IMG/VR virus record: IMGVR_UViG_3300033067_001032
Coordinates: 4,103 to 68,102 of that record
Reading direction: 5' to 3' (one strand)
DNA from: a virus
Taxonomy: Duplodnaviria; Caudoviricetes
DNA: 64,000 bases
Shown: positions 1 to 64,000 of the stretch, in pieces
Layout: every line of letters begins with the position of its first letter
How positions within the stretch are numbered: position 1 is the stretch's first letter
Notes under the pieces: model-generated
Databases searched by the model: none
What the model saw: the letters and a program-made list of their open reading frames with translations, nothing else
Told to the model about the DNA's origin: nothing
Translations under genes and position numbers: made by a program

Positions 1-877
1 GGTAGTTGAGTTGGTTCATGTCCCAGTTCTGCTGGGACTGGAAATCCTGATAGCCGAGATCGAGACTGGCCTGATTCTGCTGTTGCTGTTGCAGGCCGAT
101 CTGTTGCAGCGCGGCGATGCGCTGACGTTCCGCGTCCTGACTTCCCAACCCCTGCTGGAACAACTGATTGGAGGCGCCAAGCAATTGACCGATACCGCCT
201 TGACGCAGGGACTCTTGTTGCTGGGCTGCTTGCTGGTTGGCCTGGAACGAGGAGAGCCCCTGGCTGGCGTTGAATTGATCGGCGTTGAGACGGCGGCCCT
301 GATCGGTATTGAATTGGCCCATCGCCTCCCGATAGGCCTGCATGAGACCGTTGTTCTCGGTTTCATTGATCTGCTGGTTCTGATCGCGCTGGGCGGCGAA
401 GTCCTGGATGCCCTGCCGGTATCCGCCAAACACTCCGGAGCGGGCCGCTGCCGCGTTGCGGCCAAGCTGCTGCTCGCCGAAGCGGGTGTTCATTCTGGTT
501 AGTTGGTCGTTGAGTACATTGTCGATGTATGGATTCATGTACTGGTGAGCGGCCGCGGAATCGAAGGTCCCGGTGTTCACCGTTTGCGGCGTGTAGTTTC
601 CGGCTGTGTATTGCGAACCAGGTCCATTAGCTAGCTGACTGGTAATCCCAGTTGCTTGACCCATTGTAGGGTCTGCGCCGCCGGTGAGGTTCTGGACCGC
701 CCCAAATGCTTGGTTCTGCGGATCGGTGAAACTCGAGATGCGCGGGCCGGAATAGGCTGCGTAGGGCCGATTGGAGAGGGTCTCGGCGCGACCCATGATG
801 CGATGGAAATAAGGGACCGCCGCTGGATCAAGCGTGGTGTTTGTTACGGTTTGGTTACTTGGTTGGCCCCCGCCCAT
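1..877 (-). CDS. DNA pilot/ejection-type internal virion protein (3'-truncated by window edge)
   Basis: Hand-translated ORF missing from the track: ATG at 877 (MGGGQPSNQTVTNTT...), open to position 1. Gln/Asn-rich, with YMNPY and GVFGGYRQ motifs and a QQQNQASLDLGYQDFQSQQNW tail typical of podoviral pilot proteins. Confidence 0.75.
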   Translation of the reverse strand, partial: MGGGQPSNQTVTNTTLDPAAVPYFHRIMGRAETLSNRPYAAYSGPRISSFTDPQNQAFGAVQNLTGGADPTMGQATGITSQLANGPGSQYTAGNYTPQTVNTGTFDSAAAHQYMNPYIDNVLNDQLTRMNTRFGEQQLGRNAAAARSGVFGGYRQGIQDFAAQRDQNQQINETENNGLMQAYREAMGQFNTDQGRRLNADQFNASQGLSSFQANQQAAQQQESLRQGGIGQLLGASNQLFQQGLGSQDAERQRIAALQQIGLQQQQQNQASLDLGYQDFQSQQNWDMNQLNY

Positions 878-1310
878 CGACATCGAAGCGTATCTCCCCC
901 ATGAAGCCTACAGGCTTCGCCCCCGATGCTCCCATGACGCGCATCAAACCAAGGCGCCCGATCCACTCAAATCCGACACACCCGTTGGCCTGGGCATACT
1001 TCTTTAAGAGGTCATGCATATTCTGCCGCCAAAGGTGGGACCTGTCTCCCCCCACGTATTGGATGAACAACCACTTGGAGCGCGGGTAGTGCTGGATGAA
1101 ACAAAGCGCCACGCCGCGAATATCTATGTCGTCTTCTCCATCGGGGGAGAAAGCGATGAACAGGCTGATCCTGTTCTCTTCGGCTAGGTCGAGAAGATCG
1201 CTGGCGGTGTACCGGCCTCTGGTCCAGGACTCCGCATCTTTAAGCCATGGCGCCAATTCGTGGCGGATGGATTCAATGTGCTGAGACGGAACCGCGCTGA
1301 CTTTGAGCAT
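855..1310 (-). CDS. GNAT-fold protein of the internal-virion gene block
   Basis: 151 aa ORF with an acetyltransferase-like pattern (LFIQYVGGD...LLKKYAQANGCVGFEWIGRLG), located between ejection protein genes. Confidence 0.6.
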   Translation of the reverse strand: MLKVSAVPSQHIESIRHELAPWLKDAESWTRGRYTASDLLDLAEENRISLFIAFSPDGEDDIDIRGVALCFIQHYPRSKWLFIQYVGGDRSHLWRQNMHDLLKKYAQANGCVGFEWIGRLGLMRVMGASGAKPVGFMGEIRFDVDGRGPTK

Positions 1311-3220: not shown

Positions 3221-5085
3221 TAGGTTTTTCTCCCATCTGTTCTTGTCTCGAACCTTTGAACACCTAAACGCCAGTCGGCGCCAACCTCTTCGTTCTCCAC
3301 CCGGAGGGCGGTGGCTCGAGAGCGCAGGCGAATACTCTTCTTTTGGGTGTATTGGTCGACTGTAGCGCCCTTGGCGATTGAGGCGCTTTCGTCGACATAG
3401 GCGCTGCCGGAATAGTTACGCTGCTTGAACACGTAGGTCAGGGTGGGCGCCGCGGCCGTTGAGTTGCGGAAGGTCACATCCGGAATTAGCCGGTTCACAA
3501 ACGCAATGCGATCCCCTCGACCAATTGAGTCGTTGGGGCCGATTTCGATGGGAGCGCTCTCAGCATACGATAGAATAGCGGATGGTGGTTCTGTACTGCC
3601 GTCGTCAAGACCGAACTCGTGAGTGTAAAGATACCCGTCAGTGCCCGCTGCTCTGGGGTGGTCATAGACCCCCCGATCGAGCCAATATGATCGTTCGAGA
3701 GAACCGACGTACCAGACCTGCTCCTCGACATTGAAGACAACGTATCGATCCGGTTCCTCAGCCTCTCCCGAGGGGTAGAGCCACCAGACTTCGTTGTATC
3801 TTGCATTTGATCCACAAACCACCTTTGCCTGCTGATCCATATTCATGCCGTCGAACACATAGTCCTCGACCGGGCATTTCAGGATATTCATGGAGCCGTC
3901 GTAGTAGCGGAACCCACGCTGGCCCATCCAATACACGATGCCATTTAGCATGACTTTAGCTAGGGCGCCAATGATGGTGGTGTTAGAGTCGAGGAGGTAT
4001 GACTGAAAGATATCCCCCTCGCCCACAAACGGCATCCCGTAGAGAGCGGCGTCGGTCCATACCAGGATTTCCTGGCGGGCCTGGATGGCGGTCACGATGG
4101 TGGAGCCGATGGTCAGCCGGAAACCGCCAGCGGCGGTGGTGGTGGATGGGTTCCATTCCAGATAGTTTTCATAGTCAGACCAGCGGATGAATAACGGGTC
4201 CAGCACCGCCGATCCTATTGGGTTCACCCCGAACGCGATCACGATGCGGGAGTTGGTCGCCACCATGATTTCAATGACGCTAGATGGAACCTGGCTGGCT
4301 CCGCCCTCGACGGAGATGGCTGTGGCGCGGCCACCGGAGCTTCCGTCATAGCGATAGATGGCGCCATAGCGCGGCGCAAACAAAAGGTCCTCACCCCAGT
4401 TGGATTGACTCCAAAGCCGCATCGACGCCGATAGGGTGGTCACGGTGGCCGCTGAGCCCCAGCCACCGGAATGGCCCCAAGCACCGGCGCCCCAACCGGA
4501 ACCAAACACCGCCGATGACGAGCCTGCCGTCAATTGATAAGCGGCGGTAACGCCCGCGCCGCCACCGGCGCTGGTGGCGGATGCGGTCCCGCCCGTATCC
4601 ACCTTGTATGAATTAGCGTCGACCACCACGGTCACGATCTGCTCTTTATTGAGATTGCCGGTGGTGAGACTGTTGAATGCGGTGGCGCCAGAGAAGGTGA
4701 CGTAGTCGCCAACGGAGGCGCCGTGGGAAGTGTGGGCAACCGTGATCACACCGGAGCCGCTGAGCGACGTGAATGGATTAGCGCCGAGAGCGGCGGTCAA
4801 TCTGATTGGGGTGACGTCAGTGAGGAGCCCGGATTCCTCAACGTAGTATTTAGCGGGACATCCAATGGCGGTTAGGATCGAGCTATCCAGTGTGATCCAG
4901 GTATACATATTGCGGCAGATGCCGACAAACGCCTGGGTGGTGGCCTTCGCCCATCCGCCCATCTTCTCGGGGAAGTTCTTCCTGAAGCGAACCTTATCGG
5001 TATCGACCCAGCCACCAGTGGCCGCGTTGGTGGTCAGGTCTTTCACGACTCCTGGCGCCGGAGAGAAATCGATAAGTCTACCCAT
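3220..5085 (-). CDS. Tail nozzle / DNA stabilisation protein (tubular protein B / P22 gp10-like)
   Basis: 621 aa, beta-rich, with WVDTDKVRFR, LFIRWSD and YTHEFG-type motifs; typical size and position in the tail block. Confidence 0.75.
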   Translation of the reverse strand: MGRLIDFSPAPGVVKDLTTNAATGGWVDTDKVRFRKNFPEKMGGWAKATTQAFVGICRNMYTWITLDSSILTAIGCPAKYYVEESGLLTDVTPIRLTAALGANPFTSLSGSGVITVAHTSHGASVGDYVTFSGATAFNSLTTGNLNKEQIVTVVVDANSYKVDTGGTASATSAGGGAGVTAAYQLTAGSSSAVFGSGWGAGAWGHSGGWGSAATVTTLSASMRLWSQSNWGEDLLFAPRYGAIYRYDGSSGGRATAISVEGGASQVPSSVIEIMVATNSRIVIAFGVNPIGSAVLDPLFIRWSDYENYLEWNPSTTTAAGGFRLTIGSTIVTAIQARQEILVWTDAALYGMPFVGEGDIFQSYLLDSNTTIIGALAKVMLNGIVYWMGQRGFRYYDGSMNILKCPVEDYVFDGMNMDQQAKVVCGSNARYNEVWWLYPSGEAEEPDRYVVFNVEEQVWYVGSLERSYWLDRGVYDHPRAAGTDGYLYTHEFGLDDGSTEPPSAILSYAESAPIEIGPNDSIGRGDRIAFVNRLIPDVTFRNSTAAAPTLTYVFKQRNYSGSAYVDESASIAKGATVDQYTQKKSIRLRSRATALRVENEEVGADWRLGVQRFETRTDGRKT

Positions 5086-54128: not shown

Positions 54129-55244
54129 TCAAAGGGCGGCCTTAGCGCCGCCCTTTTTATTTGACTTATACCGGCGTTCCAGAGTTAACATTGAGGTCCA
54201 ATGTTCATCCAAGATTTGCCCATCGCAGATGCTGAGAAACAGCACCCCCCAGAACCACCCCGTAGTCGAGTGTTTCGCGTATTGTTCGATATGGCCATAC
54301 GGGAGGGCGCACCCAGCGGAGATGGCCCTAACGGCGAGGTTAGGCCCCACCTTAGCGACATCGGCGGATTGCTTGTTGTGCGTGTGCCCATGTACAATAG
54401 AGAAAACACTGTCCGTTGCTATGCGCTGGGCGGCAGTCTTCCCTCCATAGGGGCGACCGATGCCATTGTTTACATGATGTATGAACCCGACCCCTCCCAC
54501 GAAGACGTATTCCCCATACGGCACGACCCGGAAACCGATATCCTCAAAGATACTCTTGACCCTTGGTACGATGATTCCATCGAGCTTACCGGAAGACTCC
54601 TCGAATCGTTGCGCTCGGTACTCATGGTTCCCTTCACAAAGAATCCTTTTCACGCCTTTATCGCCAAAGGCGCTATCGAAGAGATGTGCGGACTCGAGCC
54701 CGGCTTCGATATCGTCTTTGAGGGTGGGCGTGATGCTATGGGCTTTAGACCCCGGCTGCGCGTGATTGCTCATGGAGTCGAGCGTGAGCCAGTCTCCTAG
54801 CTGCACCACATGGGTTGGCTCATTGTCAGCGCACCACTTACCAATCCATGTGAGACGTTCATTTGAAATCGAAGGATCGACGTGTATGTCTGGAATAACG
54901 CAAACCCGGAGCACCTCCCCAGTGGGGGCTGCAAACATCCCCGGCTCGAACACTGGAATCTCTTTCGCCACTTCCACTGGTTTTTGATATTGAGGCGCCC
55001 GATATAATGACCAATCGACTTCAACTCCAAGACTACTCGCGGCTTGGATTCGCCGTCTCACGCTGGCGTGTCCTTTACACAAGCCTGCTCGGGCGCATTC
55101 CTCGGCAGCTACTTCAATCGCAGAACGCCCCACTCCATGAACGCCTGATGGACGCGCGCCTTGGCGGAGAGCGTGTTCAACGATTCTCACTATCGCTTGA
55201 AGTTCTTGCAGCTCAAACCCTGCCTTGGCCAAAATAGATACCAC
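54129..55244 (-). CDS. Calcineurin-like metallophosphoesterase with N-terminal HTH-like region
   Basis: IPDIH, QLGDW, EGNHE, VHGHTH. Confidence 0.85.
   Translation of the reverse strand: MVSILAKAGFELQELQAIVRIVEHALRQGARPSGVHGVGRSAIEVAAEECARAGLCKGHASVRRRIQAASSLGVEVDWSLYRAPQYQKPVEVAKEIPVFEPGMFAAPTGEVLRVCVIPDIHVDPSISNERLTWIGKWCADNEPTHVVQLGDWLTLDSMSNHAQPGSKAHSITPTLKDDIEAGLESAHLFDSAFGDKGVKRILCEGNHEYRAQRFEESSGKLDGIIVPRVKSIFEDIGFRVVPYGEYVFVGGVGFIHHVNNGIGRPYGGKTAAQRIATDSVFSIVHGHTHNKQSADVAKVGPNLAVRAISAGCALPYGHIEQYAKHSTTGWFWGVLFLSICDGQILDEHWTSMLTLERRYKSNKKGGAKAAL
54131..54160. terminator. Bidirectional terminator between convergent genes
   Basis: aaagggcggc-ctta-gcgccgccc-ttttt. Confidence 0.7.
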
Positions 55245-55312: not shown

Positions 55313-58300
55313 TCAATCGCCACGGCCGTGAGCGTCCTCGAAGTCCTGGATCGGTTCGACCTGCTCGTTGTAAAGTTGCAGTTGACGGCGCAGTTCGCGC
55401 AGGCGTTCGTTCTGGTTCTGCTGATAGCGCTGGAAGGCCTCTTGGCGGGCGATTGTTTGAGTCTCCAACTGGGCGGCGCTCAGGCCAAGCCGATCATAGG
55501 CGCCGATGTCCCGGTTCATCTGGCGGCGGGCGGTGCTAACCCCCTCATTGATGGCATTGATGTCTCGATTGATCTCACCCCTGGTGCGTCGAACCTGGTC
55601 ATTGACCTCCATAACATTGATGTTGAAGCCGGTGAACATGCGGAGAAACAGGTAGGGCAGTTCCTCAATCGGCTTTCCAGATTGGGTGATGTGATCGCCG
55701 ACCGTTGCATCGGCCAGCCTTCCAAGTTCACCGCTACCCCATGAATCGGCCCGCCCGCCAGCCCCTGCCAAAGCCCCGCTGATAACGCCACGGAACATTG
55801 GCGGGGTGAAATAATCGGCGATGTAGCCAAGGCGGGCCATGTTCTTCTGGGCCTCGGTGTCGGATTCCTGATAGACCGGGAAGCCGGTATAGGGATCGAT
55901 GCCGGTCTTCATCACGGTGGCGATATCCAGGATCGGATTGCCGACACCTAGCTGAACCGCGGCCGTCACCGCATCACCGCGCAAAAGCGCGTTCAATGCG
56001 GCCAGGTCCTGGGTCCATGGATGCATCACTCCAAGATCGATGATCATGATGTGGCCTTGGCTATCACGCCATGGCAGCGGGATGGAGCCGAAGTTACGCC
56101 GATAGAATTCACTGAGCGCGCGGCGGAAGGCATCATGTTCGCGTGGAGACATGCCAAGCAGCGTTGCGGCGGCAAAGCTCATGATGTTGGTCCACAGAAT
56201 GACCGGCGCCATGAAGCGGATGGAAAGGTCCATGCCGCGGGCAAGGTTGCCGCGCTGGAATTCCCCGACAATACGATTAGCCTGATCGAATAGCTTCGGC
56301 GTGAGTTTGTAGTTATACGTGTTATGGGTGATGAACGGTTTGCCATTGCGGCGCGCAAGCCACGTGTGCGTGCCAACCACCTTCGGGCACCAGATAATTC
56401 CATCGTATGCAACCACATCACGTTTAGCGCGCCTAACGCAATAATCGCGTCCTTCACGGACGGTGATGTGCAGCATGTCGACACCATCTTTTTTTAGCTG
56501 ATTGAAACTCTTGCCTATGATGGCCAGAGCCATCTGAAATGTGGCCGCGGTCTGATTGTTTTTCTGGACGAAGCAGGCGCGACCATCGTCGGCTCCGATA
56601 TGACCGTCGCCCAGAATCATGATGCCGACAAGTCGCCCGATCTGCGCCTTAGTCATGCGCATGAGTACATGCGGATGCAATTGCTTATCCGGCGCTAGTT
56701 CACGTACAGCCATCCCTAGTCTGACTGGAACGTAGAACTGTTTAAGCGACTGTAGTTTTTCATTTTCTGACTGGGTTTGAACATTATTGAATGCGCCCAT
56801 ACGGTGCAGTAAGGCGGCGATCATGTCGGCTTTTGGGCCTGCATTTTGGGTAATGGTGATGGCGTTACATTTTCGATGTGGATGACCTTCTGTTATGTAC
56901 CAAGCCAACAATTCGACCATGTCATCAGACATGGGCTCGCCGACAGGTTGGTGATCGAAATCAGCCGCGGTTGGAATCAGATGAGATGTGTTTAGGTCTT
57001 TAGCCTGGACTAGCTTAGTGAAGTACGATTTTCCCTGGCGTGGTTTCACCACGCAGCGGTGATCGGGAGTCATCAACATATCAAGATGACGATCTTGGAC
57101 GTGGATCATGTCGCCGGTTTTATGAGCGCGGTAAACGCCTTCAATCATAGACCACTGCATCCGGCCGGTATCCATGTTGTATGATGCGGCAACATCTCCC
57201 TCCTTAACTTCATTCTGTTTCAGCCATCCACGCTGTGTCAGAATTTCTGTTTGATCGTCGACGCAGGCGAACGGAACCACCGAGTTACGCAGCACCCTCA
57301 CGCCATCGGCGATCATGGTGTAGTCTGGAGACCATTCATAGGCTTCGTTCATGGCGTCGCCTGGGGCTTGGCCTTTGTCCTTGATCTCATCGACGTACTT
57401 GGTGAAGCGAGCCCAAGTGTCCCAGAAGTTGAACATATCAGCGCCGTATTCCTTGACGCCTCCAGCGAAGGCTTTCAGGCCGGTGACGAAAGCCAGCTTG
57501 TCGCCGCTGGCGATACGTTCTTTTAGTTGCAGGCGGCGCACCAGTCCAAAGGCATGGCGAAGCTCGGTGGTGGAGTAGGTCCCGAACTTACCGCCAGAAG
57601 CCAGGAAGTCTTTCCACATCGGATCGTTGTTCTCGATCATGGATAGAGCTTCAAACTTCTTCTTCCAGGTGCCGATATTGATGGAGGTTAACCCAATCGC
57701 GCCGAGATCATGCGTCCCCACGCCATTGAAGTAGAGGGTGGAGGCGTTCTGGAAGATGGCGCGGGCATGACCCTTCGGGTTCAGCGTGGTCATCGCCTGC
57801 TTGAAGAATGACAGCGTGCGGTCGGCGCCCTTCTGCACCCAGTTCTTCGCCTGGGCCGGGCGCATGGTCTCGGTGAGAATATTGGCGATCCCCCTATGCA
57901 CAATCAGGCCGCGGAAGTTTCCATAGGCGTCGTTGTCTGGGCTGAGTTGGATGTATTGATCTCCGATGTAGCGGGGGTCGATGGTGTGCGAGGCAACCAG
58001 CGCATCCATGCGGGCCAGCCGGTCGGTGGCGATCTTACGCATGAAGTCGGTTTGATTGAGGGGAAGGTTCTTGCGGGCGATCTCGGCTTGCTGCGCCAGC
58101 GCCGCCGAGGTCATGACCCGGCCTTCAAAGTTCACCAACTGTTGAGGATAGAACCAGTTCAGTTGTTGATAGTCCGGGGCGGTATCGATCGAGCCGCCGC
58201 CCATGATGTGGGTCATCACATCTTCTTTGTGTTTGTCGGCCAGCGCTCCCTGGAATTCCAGCATGGCGTTCATGAAGTGCCAGTGCGCAAGGTCACGGTT

Positions 58301-61300
58301 CTGCTCCATGATGCCAGCCGCCGACAGGATCACCGGGTCGGTGATCTGGGCATCTCTTGTGGACCGCTCGAGAACCCGTCCAATGGAGGTGCCCTGGCGG
58401 GCCGCGCGCCAAATCGCCCCGCCCACAAAGTGATCGCCATAGCGCTTCTTCATCGGATAACGGCCGGAGGGGGACGGTGTGGCGTTAAAATCCGGGGCGG
58501 CCGAGATAAGATCGGCGGCGTCTATGTCGTCCTCCATCTGCTTGGCGCGCGCCTTGATGGCTGGCAGTGCGGCCCTTATGGTCGCGCTGCCCACATTACT
58601 GATCAGGCCGCGAGTGGTCTTTAGTTTGTTGGAGAGGAAGCGCCCGGCGCCGATGATGTCGTCATAGGAAGCGCCGTCCAGCAACGCCGACAATTGCTGA
58701 CGCAGGTCCTCGGCCTCCTCGGTGTGCTTGGTGAGGTCGAGGGCGCCGAAGATTTGCTGGTCCTTACCCGGCAACCGTTGCTTCAGGTAACCGGCGGACC
58801 CAAGCCGCATGCCGGTCATGGTGAGCGATTGCGCCACCGTGTCGAAGAACTTCCTCGGCAAGTACCTTCCGCGGTACTTCTCGAATTGCCGCGGATCGAG
58901 TCTGGCGATGCGGGTGTTCTCCTCGCCATAGAGATCGAACAACGCCTTCGATAGAACCGCCGCGGCCCTCACGTCTTCGTCGTCGATTGCATTAGGATCG
59001 GCGTCGCGAGTGGTCATGTAGTCCATGTACTGTTGGAAATCTTCCTCGGTCATGGTGTCGGCGAGACGAGACAGCCGTTGCACATGCTCACTACCAAGGC
59101 TGACCCAGCCAGCCGCCAGCCCGCGCAGGGAGAGGAAGTAGCCCTGGCCATTTAGGTTGGCCAAGGCGGTCATCTTGTAGGCGCTGTCCTTCATCCACCC
59201 GCCGATGCTGCGCAGCGCCGATAGATTGGGGTTGTGGGTTTCCAGGTTGCGGCCCCAGCGCACCAGTTGATTGATGATCTTGATCGACGTTCGTCTCGAG
59301 GCGGTGGTGGCGGTAAAGCCGCGCGGTGTTCTATCGATCACCTGACTGGCGATATCCTTGCCGCTACGCCCGGCATATCCCAGTCCTGGGATATCGGCTT
59401 CGGCAAAGCCCTGGAGTGTGGGGTTGCGGGCGCCGGTGCGCTCGGCGCCCTTATTGATGCGGCGCTTGATGCGCGCGGCGCGCTGTTCTGGAGTTTCCGA
59501 TGCGGCGCTCACCGTTGGCCGCGGGCCGCCAAACATGTATAGACCATCGGCGGTGCGGCGGGCGTTGAGCCGCGGGAATTCTTCCCCCATCCGCTTAGCT
59601 CTAGCGATAACCCTATTAACCTCTCGGTAAGAGATGCCGGTTTGATTTGCAATCTCACTCAGGCTAGCGCCATCCCGACGCAACTTCACCACGGCATTGA
59701 ATGTATCCGGGTCGATGCGATTCTGCTGTTGCCTAGCCACGCCGAGCGCCGACCTGGCTTGGGAGATTACCACCTTTATAGTTTGGTCGGATGGTTCATC
59801 GATTCTATTCACACTAACCCATGCCTTTAACTCACTGAGGATATCGATATTCTTACCGGCCTCGGCCTCGGCAACGAGGCGTCTAGCCTCGCCTAGTATT
59901 GATTTCTTGCGGTGCTTACCGGCATTTTTAACAAACGATGTGAGCTCTGCTGGGTCAACCGACATAGCGGTGGCTAACCGCTCCACCCCGCCATCGGCGG
60001 CCATGGCGCGGCGAATAGCGTGGCGAATACTAACACTTTGACCGGCAACACTACCCTTCCCCCTAGCGCTCTCCGTTTCAACGCCTAGCTCCACTTCGAT
60101 CTCAGGATCGGTGAGACCTTCATTGAACATCAGCACGATGTCCCTGGCCTCATAGTCGAGTCTCGGGAAGGTGGGCATCTTAAATTCACGCAGTGGGGCG
60201 AGCCTTGCATCCTCCTCGCGCTCGCGGACAATGTCCTCAATGCGAGCATCATGGCGTTTAATACCACGGGATACATCAGTGATGGAGCGTTCCTGGCGGG
60301 CCGCTATGCGAGCCAGGGTCCAGCCGGTTCCCGACCCAGCTAGCGGACCTGACTTGGCCCCACCGCGACGGGCCACCGATGTTCCATCGCCCTGGTGATG
60401 AAGGGTCCATGCCTCTTCATCTAGCATCGAACGGCGCTTCCAATCGCTGGAGCGGCGATTGGTTATGATTTGTTCGCGAGAACGGAGCTCCGGGAAATTG
60501 ATCGGCGGGGCAGAACGGGACTCGTCATTTTTGCGAGCGCCGGAACGAAGAAGCGAGCGGCGCACGTCCACCAGGTCGGCGGCTTCCCTGATCTTCTTAC
60601 CCTTGAAGAAACCTTCGCGCTGCATCTGCGCCGCGATCTCGGTTGGGCTCAGATAGTCGCCATCGCGCCTACTCTTCGAGAACGACAACTCCACTATGCG
60701 GACAGCCACCGCTGGCCTGGCGCCCGACTTACCCTTAGCCATCACGTAGTTGCGCCACTTGACCACGCTCGGTTCGGTGATGGTTTCGATGTTGGCGAAG
60801 ACTACCGGCCTGGGCACATCTTTTCTGGTGAGACGGTTGGAGCCGCGCCCGCTGAGTATGTACAATCCGGCATTCGGCCAGCCGCCCTGCACGCCCACGT
60901 CCAGGTCGAGAATAATGTTGCGCACCACCTCTTGCTTGATCGGTGATAGCTGTTGAGTGATGCCAGCAATAGCATCTTCGCGGGTGGCCCCAGCCTCGCG
61001 GGCTTGCAGGTACCTTCTCTTCACGCTCTGGGTAAGGGAGCGGATATTGCCGGTGATGTTCTGGCGCTGTGATTTAGGCATCGCCTCCGGATAGATCAGT
61101 CGGCGCTGAACCTCTCCCCTGTAGGTTTGGATGATTTGATACTTGTTGCGATCGATAAGCAGCTTGTTGCCGAGTTCGATGGACAATGAACGCTGCCCGC
61201 GATTATCGCGCTTACTGTCCAGGAACGCCGACAGCACATCCTCGGTAACATTGAGACGGCCAGCGATCTCGGCTAGTGAGGTGGCGGCGATCCTCTCGCG

Positions 61301-64000
61301 GAGGGTGGACTTAAGCTTGGCTACAGTGGTCGGTATCGCGGTTTCCGAGAATCCATAACGGGCGGCGATTCTTTCATAGGGATCGCCATCGACCACATCG
61401 ATGACTAGATCGCGGGCGATGGAAGAACCGAACTCACTTCTCGGACGGCCCAGCATGAACAGGCCGTCGTCTGATTTAGGCTTGCCACCTCTTCCGGCTA
61501 TTATCCTAAGCGAGTCTTCATCCCAAGTTATTCGTCTTACCCTATCCGCTATACCGGACAGGGCAGAAGTCTTTGTCTTATGTACTCGTCCACCAAGAAC
61601 ACGCTCGGCCAAAGCCACGGCATTGTCGGCGCTCAACTCCCCGTCATTTTGAAGTTCCTCCAAAGCAGATTCTCTTACGTTCTTATTTCTACTGAGTAGC
61701 CTACTCTCGTAGTTAGCGAGCCATTCTTCGGAACCCCGCTTAGCCCCCAGCATGAACAGGCCTGGGTCCTTGGAGCTCTCATCCATGGTGAACGAGTCGG
61801 CGACCTTGTTGTCTTCCGGAACCGAGAAGCGATGCGGGATGCCATAGAACCAGTTCAGGTGGGCGTTGTGGCCTTCGGCCTCGAAGAAGTTTTCATTGAA
61901 GCGGGTGATGCCATAGAACACCTCCGGGATGGAGAGTAGGTGGGATTTGAATAGCGCCTCGTTGGCTTTCCAGGCCAATTCCCTAGCTTTGAAAAAATCA
62001 TGCCGAGATGGATTAGCTTTACCGATCAGTTCGTTGTAGAGCTTCTCCGCCCTATTGATGTTAACCGTGGCGATGACATCACCGCCCGCCTTTTGGATGG
62101 CATGGTGAAGACGGCCCAACGCCAACGGCTTATCGCCGATTACATCCGCCACGCTATCGGTCCACGATGTCACCCGGCTACCGGTGTCATAGGCATGGGG
62201 CACAAAGTGTCCCTCCATGACCGTGCGCGGGGTGGGGCGCATATCGCGCCCGCCGCCCAGCATGTACAGGGAGCCGCTTTCATTGAACATCTTGTAGTAG
62301 GATGGCGGCGAATCTGGATAGGATTTCTCATCCTTAGTGAATCCGTAGCGTTCAAGCACCTCAGGAAGGAATGGGTTGAGCACATTCTCCACATAGACAC
62401 CGTTCATGCCATAGGCGCGGGCGGCGGCTTCAACCTCATTCATCAAGTTGCTGAACTTCCCGCGCGGCTGACGTTGATCCGGTGGTAGTTCTTCACTGAG
62501 ACCAGGGTGATCGGCATCGGTGGTTCTTTGCACGCTGGCAAAGTCCAGCACTAAGTGTCCCTTGCCGCGCTTCGATTTGCGCAGATACACGTCGTATTGA
62601 TTGATGTGGACCCAAGCATTGCGTGATGGGCTATCCATGAACTTGCGAAGCGGTTTGGAGATGCCGTTCTTGCCGCCAAGCATATACATCCGACCGGCGC
62701 CGTCGGCATAAAGTTGCCGATAGGTGTTTACAAAATCCTCCGGTGTCACCTCGTTCCAGGTTTTATCCATGGCGCCCATGGTCACCACCATAGCCCCGGC
62801 TTCATGATCTAGAACGCCCTCCATGATGGCGAGGTCAAGCAACGTCGACCGATACCTTTGGGTGTCCATGAGTAATTTATTGAAGGAATCCCGCAGCATC
62901 TGCGCATGCGGGCTATAATCATTGGCGATAGCCGCTAGCTTACGGCGGATATCCACCATTCGTTCGGTTTGATGGATGATTTCCTGGAGTGGGCCGTTCT
63001 CGGTGTTGAGTCCATCGGTCAGTTGCCGGAAGTTCTTCTCGACCTCGGTTTGACGGAGGGGATTATATGGCTTCTCTTCCGGTAGATTTTTGGCCTTGGC
63101 GACCTGGTTCATGAACTTCTTGAACTGGTTGTTCTGTCCCATGCCGAACATGAACATGCCGAGGTTATTCTTGAGCGCGGAGAATTGCGTGGCGCTTAAT
63201 TGGGCTTGAGCACCCAGGCCGGAGCTCTGTCTTCCATAGACATAATCGCGGGAGCGGCGACCCATCTCACCAGCCTGGATGCGAGCCAGGATGTCCTGCG
63301 CGTTGGTGTAGAGTTGAGATGGATCGGTGATGCCATTCATTCTGAGCATGCGCTGGGTGGCCTGGATCGCCTTGCGCATCTTCCCAAGGATGCCGCGCAT
63401 CTTTGGATCGGCCACGCCTTCGATGTTCTGAAGCGCCATGGCCACCGCCTCTTCGCGTTGGATCACCTTTGCTAGTTTTCTTGGCATACCGCTGGTGAAG
63501 TCGGAGTAGTTATCCAGCACCACGCGCTGGAAGGTTTCAGCGGCTTCCGGAGATACAACCCCATTCTCAACGCCGTGGGTCTTGGCGAATTCTTGCAGCG
63601 CCTTCATCTCTTCTGGCGTGATGAGGCCCATGTTCGACATGGCGTGGATCAGTTCATGGGTGGCCCGATTGAGCACAATGTCGGTCGCTTCGCGAAGAGA
63701 CTTACCCTCCAGGTCGCTCATGGCGATGGCGATAAAGTTGGCGTGGGCGATGCCTTGCGCAGTGTTGGCCGGGATCGGCCGGTCATGTGGATCGAGGATA
63801 TGGTCGACCACCCTGGTGGTCACATCGGTTAACCCGAACTGATCGGCCAGTTGGCGCACCGACTTAGCCAGCGCCGCCTTGAAGTTCTGGTAATCCGCGG
63901 TCTTGATTGGATGGATGCCGTTGTCGGGTCCATCATAGACATCAGGATCGATGCCGATGTTGTTGCTCACGCCAGCAATCAATGCGTCGGTGATTTCATC
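55313..64000 (-). CDS. Giant polyvalent internal virion/ejection protein (5'-truncated, >2,890 aa)
   Basis: Frame is open to the window edge (DEITDALIAG...). HELIH...EEAVA metallopeptidase, GNAT-like and HTH-like modules, intein, and an LPD38-like C-terminus (GNPILD...TGIDPYTGFPVY). Confidence 0.85.
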   Translation of the reverse strand, partial: DEITDALIAGVSNNIGIDPDVYDGPDNGIHPIKTADYQNFKAALAKSVRQLADQFGLTDVTTRVVDHILDPHDRPIPANTAQGIAHANFIAIAMSDLEGKSLREATDIVLNRATHELIHAMSNMGLITPEEMKALQEFAKTHGVENGVVSPEAAETFQRVVLDNYSDFTSGMPRKLAKVIQREEAVAMALQNIEGVADPKMRGILGKMRKAIQATQRMLRMNGITDPSQLYTNAQDILARIQAGEMGRRSRDYVYGRQSSGLGAQAQLSATQFSALKNNLGMFMFGMGQNNQFKKFMNQVAKAKNLPEEKPYNPLRQTEVEKNFRQLTDGLNTENGPLQEIIHQTERMVDIRRKLAAIANDYSPHAQMLRDSFNKLLMDTQRYRSTLLDLAIMEGVLDHEAGAMVVTMGAMDKTWNEVTPEDFVNTYRQLYADGAGRMYMLGGKNGISKPLRKFMDSPSRNAWVHINQYDVYLRKSKRGKGHLVLDFASVQRTTDADHPGLSEELPPDQRQPRGKFSNLMNEVEAAARAYGMNGVYVENVLNPFLPEVLERYGFTKDEKSYPDSPPSYYKMFNESGSLYMLGGGRDMRPTPRTVMEGHFVPHAYDTGSRVTSWTDSVADVIGDKPLALGRLHHAIQKAGGDVIATVNINRAEKLYNELIGKANPSRHDFFKARELAWKANEALFKSHLLSIPEVFYGITRFNENFFEAEGHNAHLNWFYGIPHRFSVPEDNKVADSFTMDESSKDPGLFMLGAKRGSEEWLANYESRLLSRNKNVRESALEELQNDGELSADNAVALAERVLGGRVHKTKTSALSGIADRVRRITWDEDSLRIIAGRGGKPKSDDGLFMLGRPRSEFGSSIARDLVIDVVDGDPYERIAARYGFSETAIPTTVAKLKSTLRERIAATSLAEIAGRLNVTEDVLSAFLDSKRDNRGQRSLSIELGNKLLIDRNKYQIIQTYRGEVQRRLIYPEAMPKSQRQNITGNIRSLTQSVKRRYLQAREAGATREDAIAGITQQLSPIKQEVVRNIILDLDVGVQGGWPNAGLYILSGRGSNRLTRKDVPRPVVFANIETITEPSVVKWRNYVMAKGKSGARPAVAVRIVELSFSKSRRDGDYLSPTEIAAQMQREGFFKGKKIREAADLVDVRRSLLRSGARKNDESRSAPPINFPELRSREQIITNRRSSDWKRRSMLDEEAWTLHHQGDGTSVARRGGAKSGPLAGSGTGWTLARIAARQERSITDVSRGIKRHDARIEDIVREREEDARLAPLREFKMPTFPRLDYEARDIVLMFNEGLTDPEIEVELGVETESARGKGSVAGQSVSIRHAIRRAMAADGGVERLATAMSVDPAELTSFVKNAGKHRKKSILGEARRLVAEAEAGKNIDILSELKAWVSVNRIDEPSDQTIKVVISQARSALGVARQQQNRIDPDTFNAVVKLRRDGASLSEIANQTGISYREVNRVIARAKRMGEEFPRLNARRTADGLYMFGGPRPTVSAASETPEQRAARIKRRINKGAERTGARNPTLQGFAEADIPGLGYAGRSGKDIASQVIDRTPRGFTATTASRRTSIKIINQLVRWGRNLETHNPNLSALRSIGGWMKDSAYKMTALANLNGQGYFLSLRGLAAGWVSLGSEHVQRLSRLADTMTEEDFQQYMDYMTTRDADPNAIDDEDVRAAAVLSKALFDLYGEENTRIARLDPRQFEKYRGRYLPRKFFDTVAQSLTMTGMRLGSAGYLKQRLPGKDQQIFGALDLTKHTEEAEDLRQQLSALLDGASYDDIIGAGRFLSNKLKTTRGLISNVGSATIRAALPAIKARAKQMEDDIDAADLISAAPDFNATPSPSGRYPMKKRYGDHFVGGAIWRAARQGTSIGRVLERSTRDAQITDPVILSAAGIMEQNRDLAHWHFMNAMLEFQGALADKHKEDVMTHIMGGGSIDTAPDYQQLNWFYPQQLVNFEGRVMTSAALAQQAEIARKNLPLNQTDFMRKIATDRLARMDALVASHTIDPRYIGDQYIQLSPDNDAYGNFRGLIVHRGIANILTETMRPAQAKNWVQKGADRTLSFFKQAMTTLNPKGHARAIFQNASTLYFNGVGTHDLGAIGLTSINIGTWKKKFEALSMIENNDPMWKDFLASGGKFGTYSTTELRHAFGLVRRLQLKERIASGDKLAFVTGLKAFAGGVKEYGADMFNFWDTWARFTKYVDEIKDKGQAPGDAMNEAYEWSPDYTMIADGVRVLRNSVVPFACVDDQTEILTQRGWLKQNEVKEGDVAASYNMDTGRMQWSMIEGVYRAHKTGDMIHVQDRHLDMLMTPDHRCVVKPRQGKSYFTKLVQAKDLNTSHLIPTAADFDHQPVGEPMSDDMVELLAWYITEGHPHRKCNAITITQNAGPKADMIAALLHRMGAFNNVQTQSENEKLQSLKQFYVPVRLGMAVRELAPDKQLHPHVLMRMTKAQIGRLVGIMILGDGHIGADDGRACFVQKNNQTAATFQMALAIIGKSFNQLKKDGVDMLHITVREGRDYCVRRAKRDVVAYDGIIWCPKVVGTHTWLARRNGKPFITHNTYNYKLTPKLFDQANRIVGEFQRGNLARGMDLSIRFMAPVILWTNIMSFAAATLLGMSPREHDAFRRALSEFYRRNFGSIPLPWRDSQGHIMIIDLGVMHPWTQDLAALNALLRGDAVTAAVQLGVGNPILDIATVMKTGIDPYTGFPVYQESDTEAQKNMARLGYIADYFTPPMFRGVISGALAGAGGRADSWGSGELGRLADATVGDHITQSGKPIEELPYLFLRMFTGFNINVMEVNDQVRRTRGEINRDINAINEGVSTARRQMNRDIGAYDRLGLSAAQLETQTIARQEAFQRYQQNQNERLRELRRQLQLYNEQVEPIQDFEDAHGRGD
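56321..57265 (-). mobile_element. Intein (315 aa), class 1, with LAGLIDADG-type endonuclease
   Basis: PFA|CVDDQTEILTQRGW...MTPDH...IIWCPKV...PFITHN|T; endonuclease motifs LLAWYITEG and LVGIMILGDG. Confidence 0.9.

Follow-up and report, generated by a model that had tools for sequence, protein, structure and literature searches.

MARTX toxins carry a string of effector modules in one polypeptide, and a built-in protease frees the modules in the target cell by cutting at short sites between them. Short peptides also define the sites of two potyvirus proteases: NIa cuts E-x-x-Y-x-Q before G or S, and HC-Pro cuts Y-x-V-G before a second G, acting in cis at its own C-terminus. The internal virion protein gp16 of phage T7 is 1318 amino acids (aa) long and is not known to undergo cutting into cassettes. 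Here we describe a giant gene on the minus strand of IMG/VR virus record IMGVR_UViG_3300033067_001032, a contig of 68,102 bp from a podovirus-like phage of about 68 kb; the stretch analysed, hereafter the window, is 64,000 nucleotides long and covers positions 4,103 to 68,102 of that record. The part of the gene product encoded in the window, P0001, is a chain of unrelated modules that lie downstream of a domain with an HExxH motif, and a short hydrophobic peptide recurs at seven of its module boundaries.

Multi-module proteins of phages and conjugative elements have been described as polyvalent proteins by Iyer, Burroughs, Anand, de Souza and Aravind (2017; PMC5512222), who proposed that they are processed by internal zincins; that paper names no cleavage or junction motif. 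In the searchable literature we found no paper that names a processing site or junction peptide in polyvalent phage proteins. Defined sites are known for prohead proteases: L/I-x-E for gp21 of T4, and S/A/G-x-E in phiKZ and SPN3US (PMC10052503, PMC5694885).

Results

P0001 is translated from a single open frame of 2895 codons (window 55313-64000, minus strand) and is open at its N-terminus. An initial annotation of the window had described the protein as a virion polyprotein segmented by a sevenfold motif downstream of its own metallopeptidase, and had offered the motif as a candidate cleavage or cassette-junction signal. We found all seven motifs where that annotation had placed them, in one minus-strand open reading frame (ORF): GMFMFGM (motif 1; aa 281-287, 63140-63160), RMYMLGG (motif 2; aa 437-443, 62672-62692), SLYMLGG (motif 3; aa 577-583, 62252-62272), GLFMLGA (motif 4; aa 747-753, 61742-61762), GLFMLGR (motif 5; aa 846-852, 61445-61465), GLYILSG (motif 6; aa 1045-1051, 60848-60868) and GLYMFGG (motif 7; aa 1486-1492, 59525-59545). 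They are spaced 156, 140, 170, 99, 199 and 441 aa apart, which agrees with the module lengths of about 100-440 aa reported there. The copies sit exclusively between the HExxH domain and a conserved C-terminal domain, which motif 7 adjoins, and they flank every one of the six cassettes, M1 to M6, with the consensus G-x-h-[FY]-[MI]-[LF]-[GS]-x set within a Pro/Ser/Lys/Arg-rich linker. Proline makes up 8.1% of the motif flanks versus 4.0% of the whole protein, and Ser, Lys and Arg are enriched as well. At motif 1, the sole junction modelled, an AlphaFold2 (AF2) model left aa 243-300 unstructured, with predicted local distance difference test (pLDDT) values <40.

Two scans recovered these sites, motifs 4 and 5 among them. 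The strict pattern G.[FY][MI][LF][GS] found five of the seven (0.027 expected from 2000 shuffles), and an unbiased BLOSUM self-similarity scan of P0001 returned exactly seven sites, whereas any segment of the shuffled protein had at most 2-3 partners; enrichment of reduced-alphabet k-mers proved too rigid and missed the motif. When all six-frame ORFs of the contig (68,266 residues) were scanned with a matrix, the seven sites scored 18.6-27 and the next best 12.4. Within the contig, the motif is limited to the giant protein. The peptide GRMYGMRPGG, near the N-terminus of the 811-aa piece of the gene product described below, scored below the threshold, is not conserved in relatives and was not counted as a site. 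The seven sites differ at synonymous codon positions, with 61-94% nucleotide identity over 18 nt, which indicates that selection acts on the peptide and not on the DNA.

Among about 100 family proteins of at least 1800 aa, P0001 alone has such a regular, hydrophobic and dispersed motif; the other repeated words in these proteins are Pro-rich low complexity or repeated domains. Four relatives, P0002, P0006, P0007 and P0008, retain a weaker h-[FY]-M-x-[GSA] at orthologous boundaries, with diverged flanks: P0006 and P0007 read FMFRG at the position aligned with motif 1, and the spot equivalent to motif 7 reads QMFMSG in P0002, QMFATR in P0006 and HLMASR in P0007. As far as these comparisons indicate, the motif is confined to the closest clade of relatives.

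Homology between P0001 and other giant proteins begins and ends at the motifs. In BLAST comparisons, P0002 was alignable over aa 5-580 and 1487-2889 of P0001, P0006 over aa 15-441, P0008 over aa 20-259 and 449-574, P0003 over aa 1050-1481 and P0166 over aa 442-571. Endpoints at aa 441, 442 and 449 thus surround motif 2, and those at aa 571, 574 and 580 motif 3; at motif 6 the homology to P0003 begins (aa 1050), and at motif 7 it stops (aa 1481) and that to P0002 resumes (aa 1487). In total, 10 of the 15 interior endpoints lie no more than 12 aa from a motif (binomial 5.5e-7, with some dependence among the endpoints). The relatives differ from one another by insertion or replacement of whole blocks at motif-like points, and the alignments of P0007 to P0008 and P0009 begin at P0007 residue 1533-1534, at a YMFAG motif. 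These data strongly support the proposed cassette-junction signal: cassettes are swapped at the motifs, even between unrelated giant proteins, and the module swapping in homologues that the initial annotation had named as a check is confirmed by both the BLAST endpoints and the shared cassettes. With its six cassettes and HExxH domain, P0001 consists of several unrelated modules that are mosaic between relatives, as in polyvalent proteins, and it has a short conserved peptide at each module boundary, as in protease-processed polyproteins. Judged by their alignments, the cassettes are exchangeable units.

Two of the cassettes can be followed beyond the closest relatives. M2 (aa 445-576, window 62273..62668, minus strand) occurs also in P0002, P0008 and the unrelated P0166, with 40% identity to residues 1910-2040 of the latter; its nearest clusters in the ESM Atlas are GNAT acetyltransferases (score 0.94), a resemblance that agrees with how we read the sequence and that we treat as a lead only. 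M6 (aa 1052-1485, window 59546..60847, minus strand) is 48% identical to a segment of the giant protein P0003 and holds helix-turn-helix (HTH) units that resemble HTH_23 and sigma-70 region 4, with the HTH_23-like unit at aa 1437-1475. No recognisable relatives were found for M1, M3, M4 and M5, and for M3 (aa 585-746) the ESM Atlas offered no credible look-alike (best score 0.83). A search for shorter, stand-alone homologues of aa 280-1490 found none.

P0003 and P0166 share a C-terminal domain of a different family, phrog_9880, which three jackhmmer rounds from the P0001 family did not reach; M6 and M2 are nevertheless common to P0001 and these two proteins, respectively. The shared segment of P0001 and P0003 begins just past motif 6 and stops four residues before motif 7, and at those two exact boundary spots P0003 has DTYLQ and ETYFQ. 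Indeed, seven boundaries of P0003 bear peptides like E-[TE]-Y-[FY]-Q (4 matches to the strict form, versus 0.00 expected), and the last of them stands directly before its own C-terminal domain of about 1060 aa, with the homology to P0166 starting 7 residues later. P0003 is 4497 aa long (L002 10001-23494), and its junction peptide is TEV-site-like. We recognised no HExxH and no protease in P0003, whose gene belongs to a T7-like structural module that also includes a Head-tail_con portal and Phage_capsid_2.

Since the same cassette lies between different peptides in P0001 and P0003, the junction peptide is a property of the carrier protein and not of the cassette. A peptide that is specific to its carrier argues for a lineage-specific reader, and argues against the peptide being part of the module fold or a shared DNA crossover site. 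The pair is in effect a natural experiment, one cassette between different junction peptides in two unrelated carriers, and it implies that the carrier protein sets the context in which a junction is read.

The HExxH domain (aa ~30-262, window 63215..63913, minus strand) lies N-terminal of all seven motifs, as the initial annotation had it, with HELIH at aa 115-119 (63644-63658) and EEAVA at aa 183-187 (63440-63454). In nine homologues, residues H115, E116, H119, G125, E131, Y165, E184, A185 and A187 are invariant. As in zincins, the HExxH lies in a predicted helix (102-123) and a conserved glutamate, E184, in a later helix (174-193). An AF2 model from nine sequences (pLDDT 66) places a small beta-sheet ahead of the HExxH helix and a helical lobe; an earlier model of aa 1-300 from five sequences (pLDDT 50) gave generic helical VIA matches and was replaced by it. 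The fold matches of the nine-sequence model are weak and mostly zincins (VIA Z 5-6.3; Foldseek E 0.01-0.3): anthrax lethal factor and PPEP (M34), the Certhrax N-domain, HtpX, Wss1, SPRTN, selecase, PprI and neprilysin-type enzymes. We conclude that the domain is probably a zincin-like peptidase of an unclassified family.

At its end, the domain has a conserved tail similar to the junction motif, RDYVYG (aa 251-256, window 63233..63250, minus strand). The tail follows the pattern G-x-x-G-x-R-x-R-[DN]-h-h-x-G, with G244, G247, R249 and G256 invariant in the nine homologues; at the RDYVYG position the close relatives have RNYMLG (P0002), RDYMRG, RNYYKG or RNLLLG. On this likeness, the tail is a possible eighth cleavage site, cut in cis. 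The clade with the HExxH domain (P0001, P0002, P0006, P0007 and P0008) uses h-[FY]-M-x-G, whereas P0003, which lacks the domain, uses E-T-Y-F-Q. A complex prediction for the HExxH domain (aa 1-250) and the motif-7 linker scored 0.01, a value that speaks neither for nor against binding.

The conserved C-terminal domain (window 55316..59524, minus strand; about 1060 aa without its intein), defined by family search, is common to all members found and matches no named family. A full HMMER search with aa 1487-2215 returned 192 clusters at E<=0.001. Mapped in about 150 fetched members, the domain stands at the C-terminus behind N-terminal extensions of about 0-4150 aa; where long contigs exist, members lie on contigs of ~40-62 kb. 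Several of the short members are fragments from short contigs, so that most of the stand-alone forms may not be real; a few, P0074, P0018 and the cluster of P0014, are on ~60-kb contigs. The cluster names of ten family members were uninformative. A search of viral contigs for loci related through the C-terminal domain found none. Domains of polyvalent proteins are present in relatives: LPD23 in P0007, P0008 and P0009, LPD22 with LPD23 in P0166 (the LPD22 match falls below Pfam's cutoff) and ddrB-ParB in P0142, and there are methylase and helicase traces among members. Because family members carry these domains and traces, we provisionally assign the giant protein, by its family, to the polyvalent-protein class. 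P0001 itself has no LPD match, and its single Pfam match is HTH_23-like. Whole-length searches of P0001 gave HTH and intein matches alone in Pfam and PHROGs, inteins alone among PDB sequences, and intein matches alone in tblastn against 50,697 cultured phage records.

The intein, with a homing-endonuclease region (aa 2246-2560, window 56321..57265, minus strand), is 315 aa long and splits the C-terminal domain between VVPFA and TYNYK; it starts with CVDDQ and ends with THN, followed by T. P0002 has an insertion with the same PHROG match at the same site, and P0006, P0007 and P0008 are without the intein.

Some relatives have further features of this kind. LPD23 starts at junction-like peptides in P0008 (YNLVG; aa 1654-1708) and in P0091 and P0009 (AMAIAG and YIYAG), and in P0007 (L005) and P0008 (L006) a second HExxH domain (HELQH/HEIQH), weakly matched by Peptidase_M90, comes after it. 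P0054 (aa 1547-2063) and P0060 (aa 994-1510) contain a dispersed h-[YF]-[HN]-x-G-x-[FY]-D, present 5 times at spacings of 171, 80, 181 and 78 aa, which could reflect the repetition of a two-module unit or serve as a further junction signal.

The end of the window coincides with the end of the 68,102-bp contig, and the giant ORF is incomplete, running off that end: P0001 represents the C-terminal 2895 codons and stop (55313..64000, minus strand), and the 5' end is lost. At the other end of the contig, outside the window, an ORF of 811 codons (contig positions 3-2435 of L001, minus strand) has a proper start and runs off the contig start. The first ~366 residues of this 811-aa piece are alignable to the N-termini of P0002, P0006 and P0008, and its very first residues agree with those of relatives (MPEGRDRYIIVTGPDG vs MPGEDPQWIVVTDPDG). 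Since P0002, P0006 and P0008 hold the N-terminal domain, the HExxH domain and the C-terminal domain together in one protein of 3113-3952 aa, the comparison indicates that the two ORF pieces are one gene of at least 3,706 codons, split by the contig ends. When the ends are abutted, the reading frames of the pieces differ by 2 nt and a stop lies 33 codons upstream; this offset means that some sequence is probably missing. Because the HExxH domain of relatives begins 1080-1380 aa from the N-terminus, roughly 0.8-1.7 kb of the giant gene may be absent from the contig. Among sequencing runs, one contains the whole stretch and probably represents its source sample, no RNA data set is listed as containing it, and small shares occur in riverine metagenomes, from which we draw no conclusion on habitat. 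The giant protein has five regions: the N-terminal domain, an acidic Ala/Pro-rich spacer, the HExxH zincin-like domain, the six cassettes and the C-terminal domain.

On the minus strand, genes are ordered terminase, portal, major head protein, tail and virion structural genes, a 343-aa and a 495-aa protein, and the giant gene, which is the last gene of the structural operon. The same order is found in the contigs of P0002, P0006, P0007, P0008 and P0009, where genes of ~350 and ~450 aa precede the giant gene. The 495-aa protein (L001 2467-3954, minus strand) and the 343-aa protein (L001 3954-4985, equal to window 2-883, minus strand) are Gln/Gly/Ala-rich and have no family match; by gene position they are candidate smaller ejection proteins. 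The next gene downstream of the giant gene encodes a metallophosphoesterase (window 54129-55244, minus strand; phrog_221, E 2.4e-25). From its gene position, the giant protein is presumably packed in the capsid and ejected. Among the matches of P0001 in PHROGs, Pfam and PDB sequence searches there was no characterised ejection protein such as gp16.

Discussion

Our results identify a peptide that marks the borders of exchangeable cassettes in a giant phage protein. We think it fairly probable that this peptide is cleaved, by whatever protease. The giant protein would be packed in the capsid as an internal or ejection protein, as its gene position and class suggest, and would enter the cell with the DNA; the junction peptides would then serve as processing sites. 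Several features argue for cleavage: the retention of a hydrophobic core inside otherwise hydrophilic linkers, the change of the peptide with its carrier, and the presence of an internal peptidase-like domain with a motif-like tail. We also count for it that we recognised no prohead protease among the head-module genes and that the motif is absent from other proteins of the contig, and that DNA-binding and enzyme cassettes would need release from the C-terminal domain. The likeliest cutter would be the giant protein's own HExxH domain, acting first at the motif-like tail of its own C-terminus, and to this specific assignment we give slightly less than an even chance. Such cuts would separate the cassettes, among them the GNAT-like unit and the HTH DNA-binding units, from a C-terminal domain that would remain with the ejection apparatus. 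More tentatively, and with less confidence than doubt, we propose a lineage-specific 'junction peptide code', in which each carrier's linker peptide is read by its own processing activity and the cassettes in between become releasable injected effectors. Under this proposal, G-L-[FY]-M-L-G would be read by the unclassified zincin-like domain, which would also cut its own tail, and cassettes would move between unrelated carriers and adopt the code of the recipient.

Several observations weigh against processing by the HExxH domain. We infer cleavage at the motif and have seen no cut. The virion RNA polymerase of phage N4 has an MPTase domain and yet is packaged unprocessed (PMC5512222). The earlier description of the domain as the protein's 'own metallopeptidase' is plausible on the strength of the invariant HExxH and downstream Glu and of the mostly zincin-like folds; those fold matches are, however, individually weak, and family models do not back it: the HExxH domains of P0001 and four homologues had no match in Pfam, MPTase-PolyVal included (maximum E 10, with filters that drop most matches above about 0.1), and the domain had no PHROG match and no PDB sequence match with a five-sequence profile. 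Furthermore, the motif was not enriched in distant family members with the HExxH domain (seven proteins, six of them long enough for the test), the density being 0.10 hits per 1000 aa in them vs 0.07 in proteins without the domain; the link between protease and motif therefore rests on one clade and the contrast with P0003. P0166 carries M2 without a recognisable junction peptide. Finally, LPD23 starts exactly at the motif-like YMFAG in P0007 (aa 1534-1590), so the peptide could be a structural first strand in some modules.

We also considered that the peptides are not cut at all and are instead docking motifs, either for a chaperone such as DnaK, which could draw in the unfolded chain once it is ejected and refold it, or for the interior of the capsid or core, which would hold the chain in the manner of an encapsulin cargo-loading peptide. 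The peptide itself lends this idea some weight: a core of 4-5 hydrophobic residues is usually followed by Arg, Lys or Pro (GRPR, GAKR, SGRGSNR, GGPRP), and a hydrophobic core with basic flanks presumably fits the published DnaK-binding pattern. A protein of ~3,700 aa must traverse the tail channel unfolded, and linker position and carrier specificity would suit any lineage-specific reader. We regard docking as unlikely all the same: the acidic E-T-Y-F-Q of P0003 is unfit as a DnaK-type site, and effectors such as the DNA-binding HTH units would remain attached to the C-terminal domain. The P0003 contig encodes, a few genes further downstream than the giant gene, a 512-aa protein of the HSP70/MreB family (L002 30074-31612), which may bear on chaperone handling of ejected proteins.

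A further alternative keeps cleavage and changes the enzyme: another protease, of host or phage, would cut the junction peptides, and the HExxH domain would be an effector that acts on host proteins, a role that Iyer et al. (PMC5512222) allow for MPTase domains. The distant HExxH-domain proteins that lack the motif, and P0003 with its regular junction peptide and no HExxH, would both fit. Against this stand the head module, in which we recognised no further protease; the restriction of the motif to a single protein of the contig, whereas prohead-protease sites mark several head proteins; and the conserved motif-like tail of the HExxH domain. A separate protease seems to us quite improbable. 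It is more improbable still that the peptide is a mere recombination or linker convention without any reader, kept by cassette exchange at a short shared sequence: exchange breakpoints do coincide with motifs and relatives encode ERF or RecT recombinases, but it is the peptide and not its synonymously varied 18-nt DNA (61-94% identical) that is conserved, M6 lies between different peptides in P0001 and P0003, so that the junction neither travelled with the cassette nor gave shared DNA homology, and a neutral linker would not retain a hydrophobic Y/F-M-L core.

If the junction peptides are indeed cleaved, one could predict module boundaries in huge, unannotated phage proteins from their sequence and define sets of injected effectors, and a simple design rule would be at hand for delivering protein cargo together with phage DNA. 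The HExxH domain would represent a new family of peptidases.

How do these features compare with known systems? MARTX toxins resemble the giant protein in their unrelated modules, built-in protease-like domain and short inter-module sites, with release here being a proposal; they differ in being bacterial secreted toxins whose cysteine protease is activated by inositol hexakisphosphate and cuts after Leu, and there is no homology. The potyvirus sites offer a likeness only: Y-M-L-G-G here and E-T-Y-F-Q in P0003 recall the HC-Pro and NIa sites, and the HC-Pro cis site parallels the tail of the HExxH domain, but potyviruses are eukaryotic RNA viruses with cysteine or serine-type proteases. Prohead-protease processing likewise involves short motif-defined sites in packed and ejected proteins, the cuts being a proposal in our case; there, a separate protease cuts many head proteins, whereas here the motif lies in one protein. 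Like the internal virion and ejection proteins of podoviruses (T7 gp14-gp16; PMC8954989), the giant protein is large, and its gene, which two mid-sized genes precede, ends the structural operon.

Polyvalent proteins are matched in several respects: P0001 is a giant multi-module phage protein with mosaic domains and an internal HExxH domain, and its relatives carry LPD23, LPD22 and ddrB-ParB. It is unlike them in that its HExxH domain has no Pfam MPTase match, that P0001 has no LPD and that the shared C-terminal domain is unnamed. The class and the idea of zincin processing have been published, and the defined junction peptide appears to be new. To the 2017 prediction of processing by internal zincins, this locus brings a concrete peptide repeated sevenfold; it also contributes a new HExxH family whose tail resembles the motif, and a transfer of cassettes across families in which the recipient's junction peptide takes the place of the original one.

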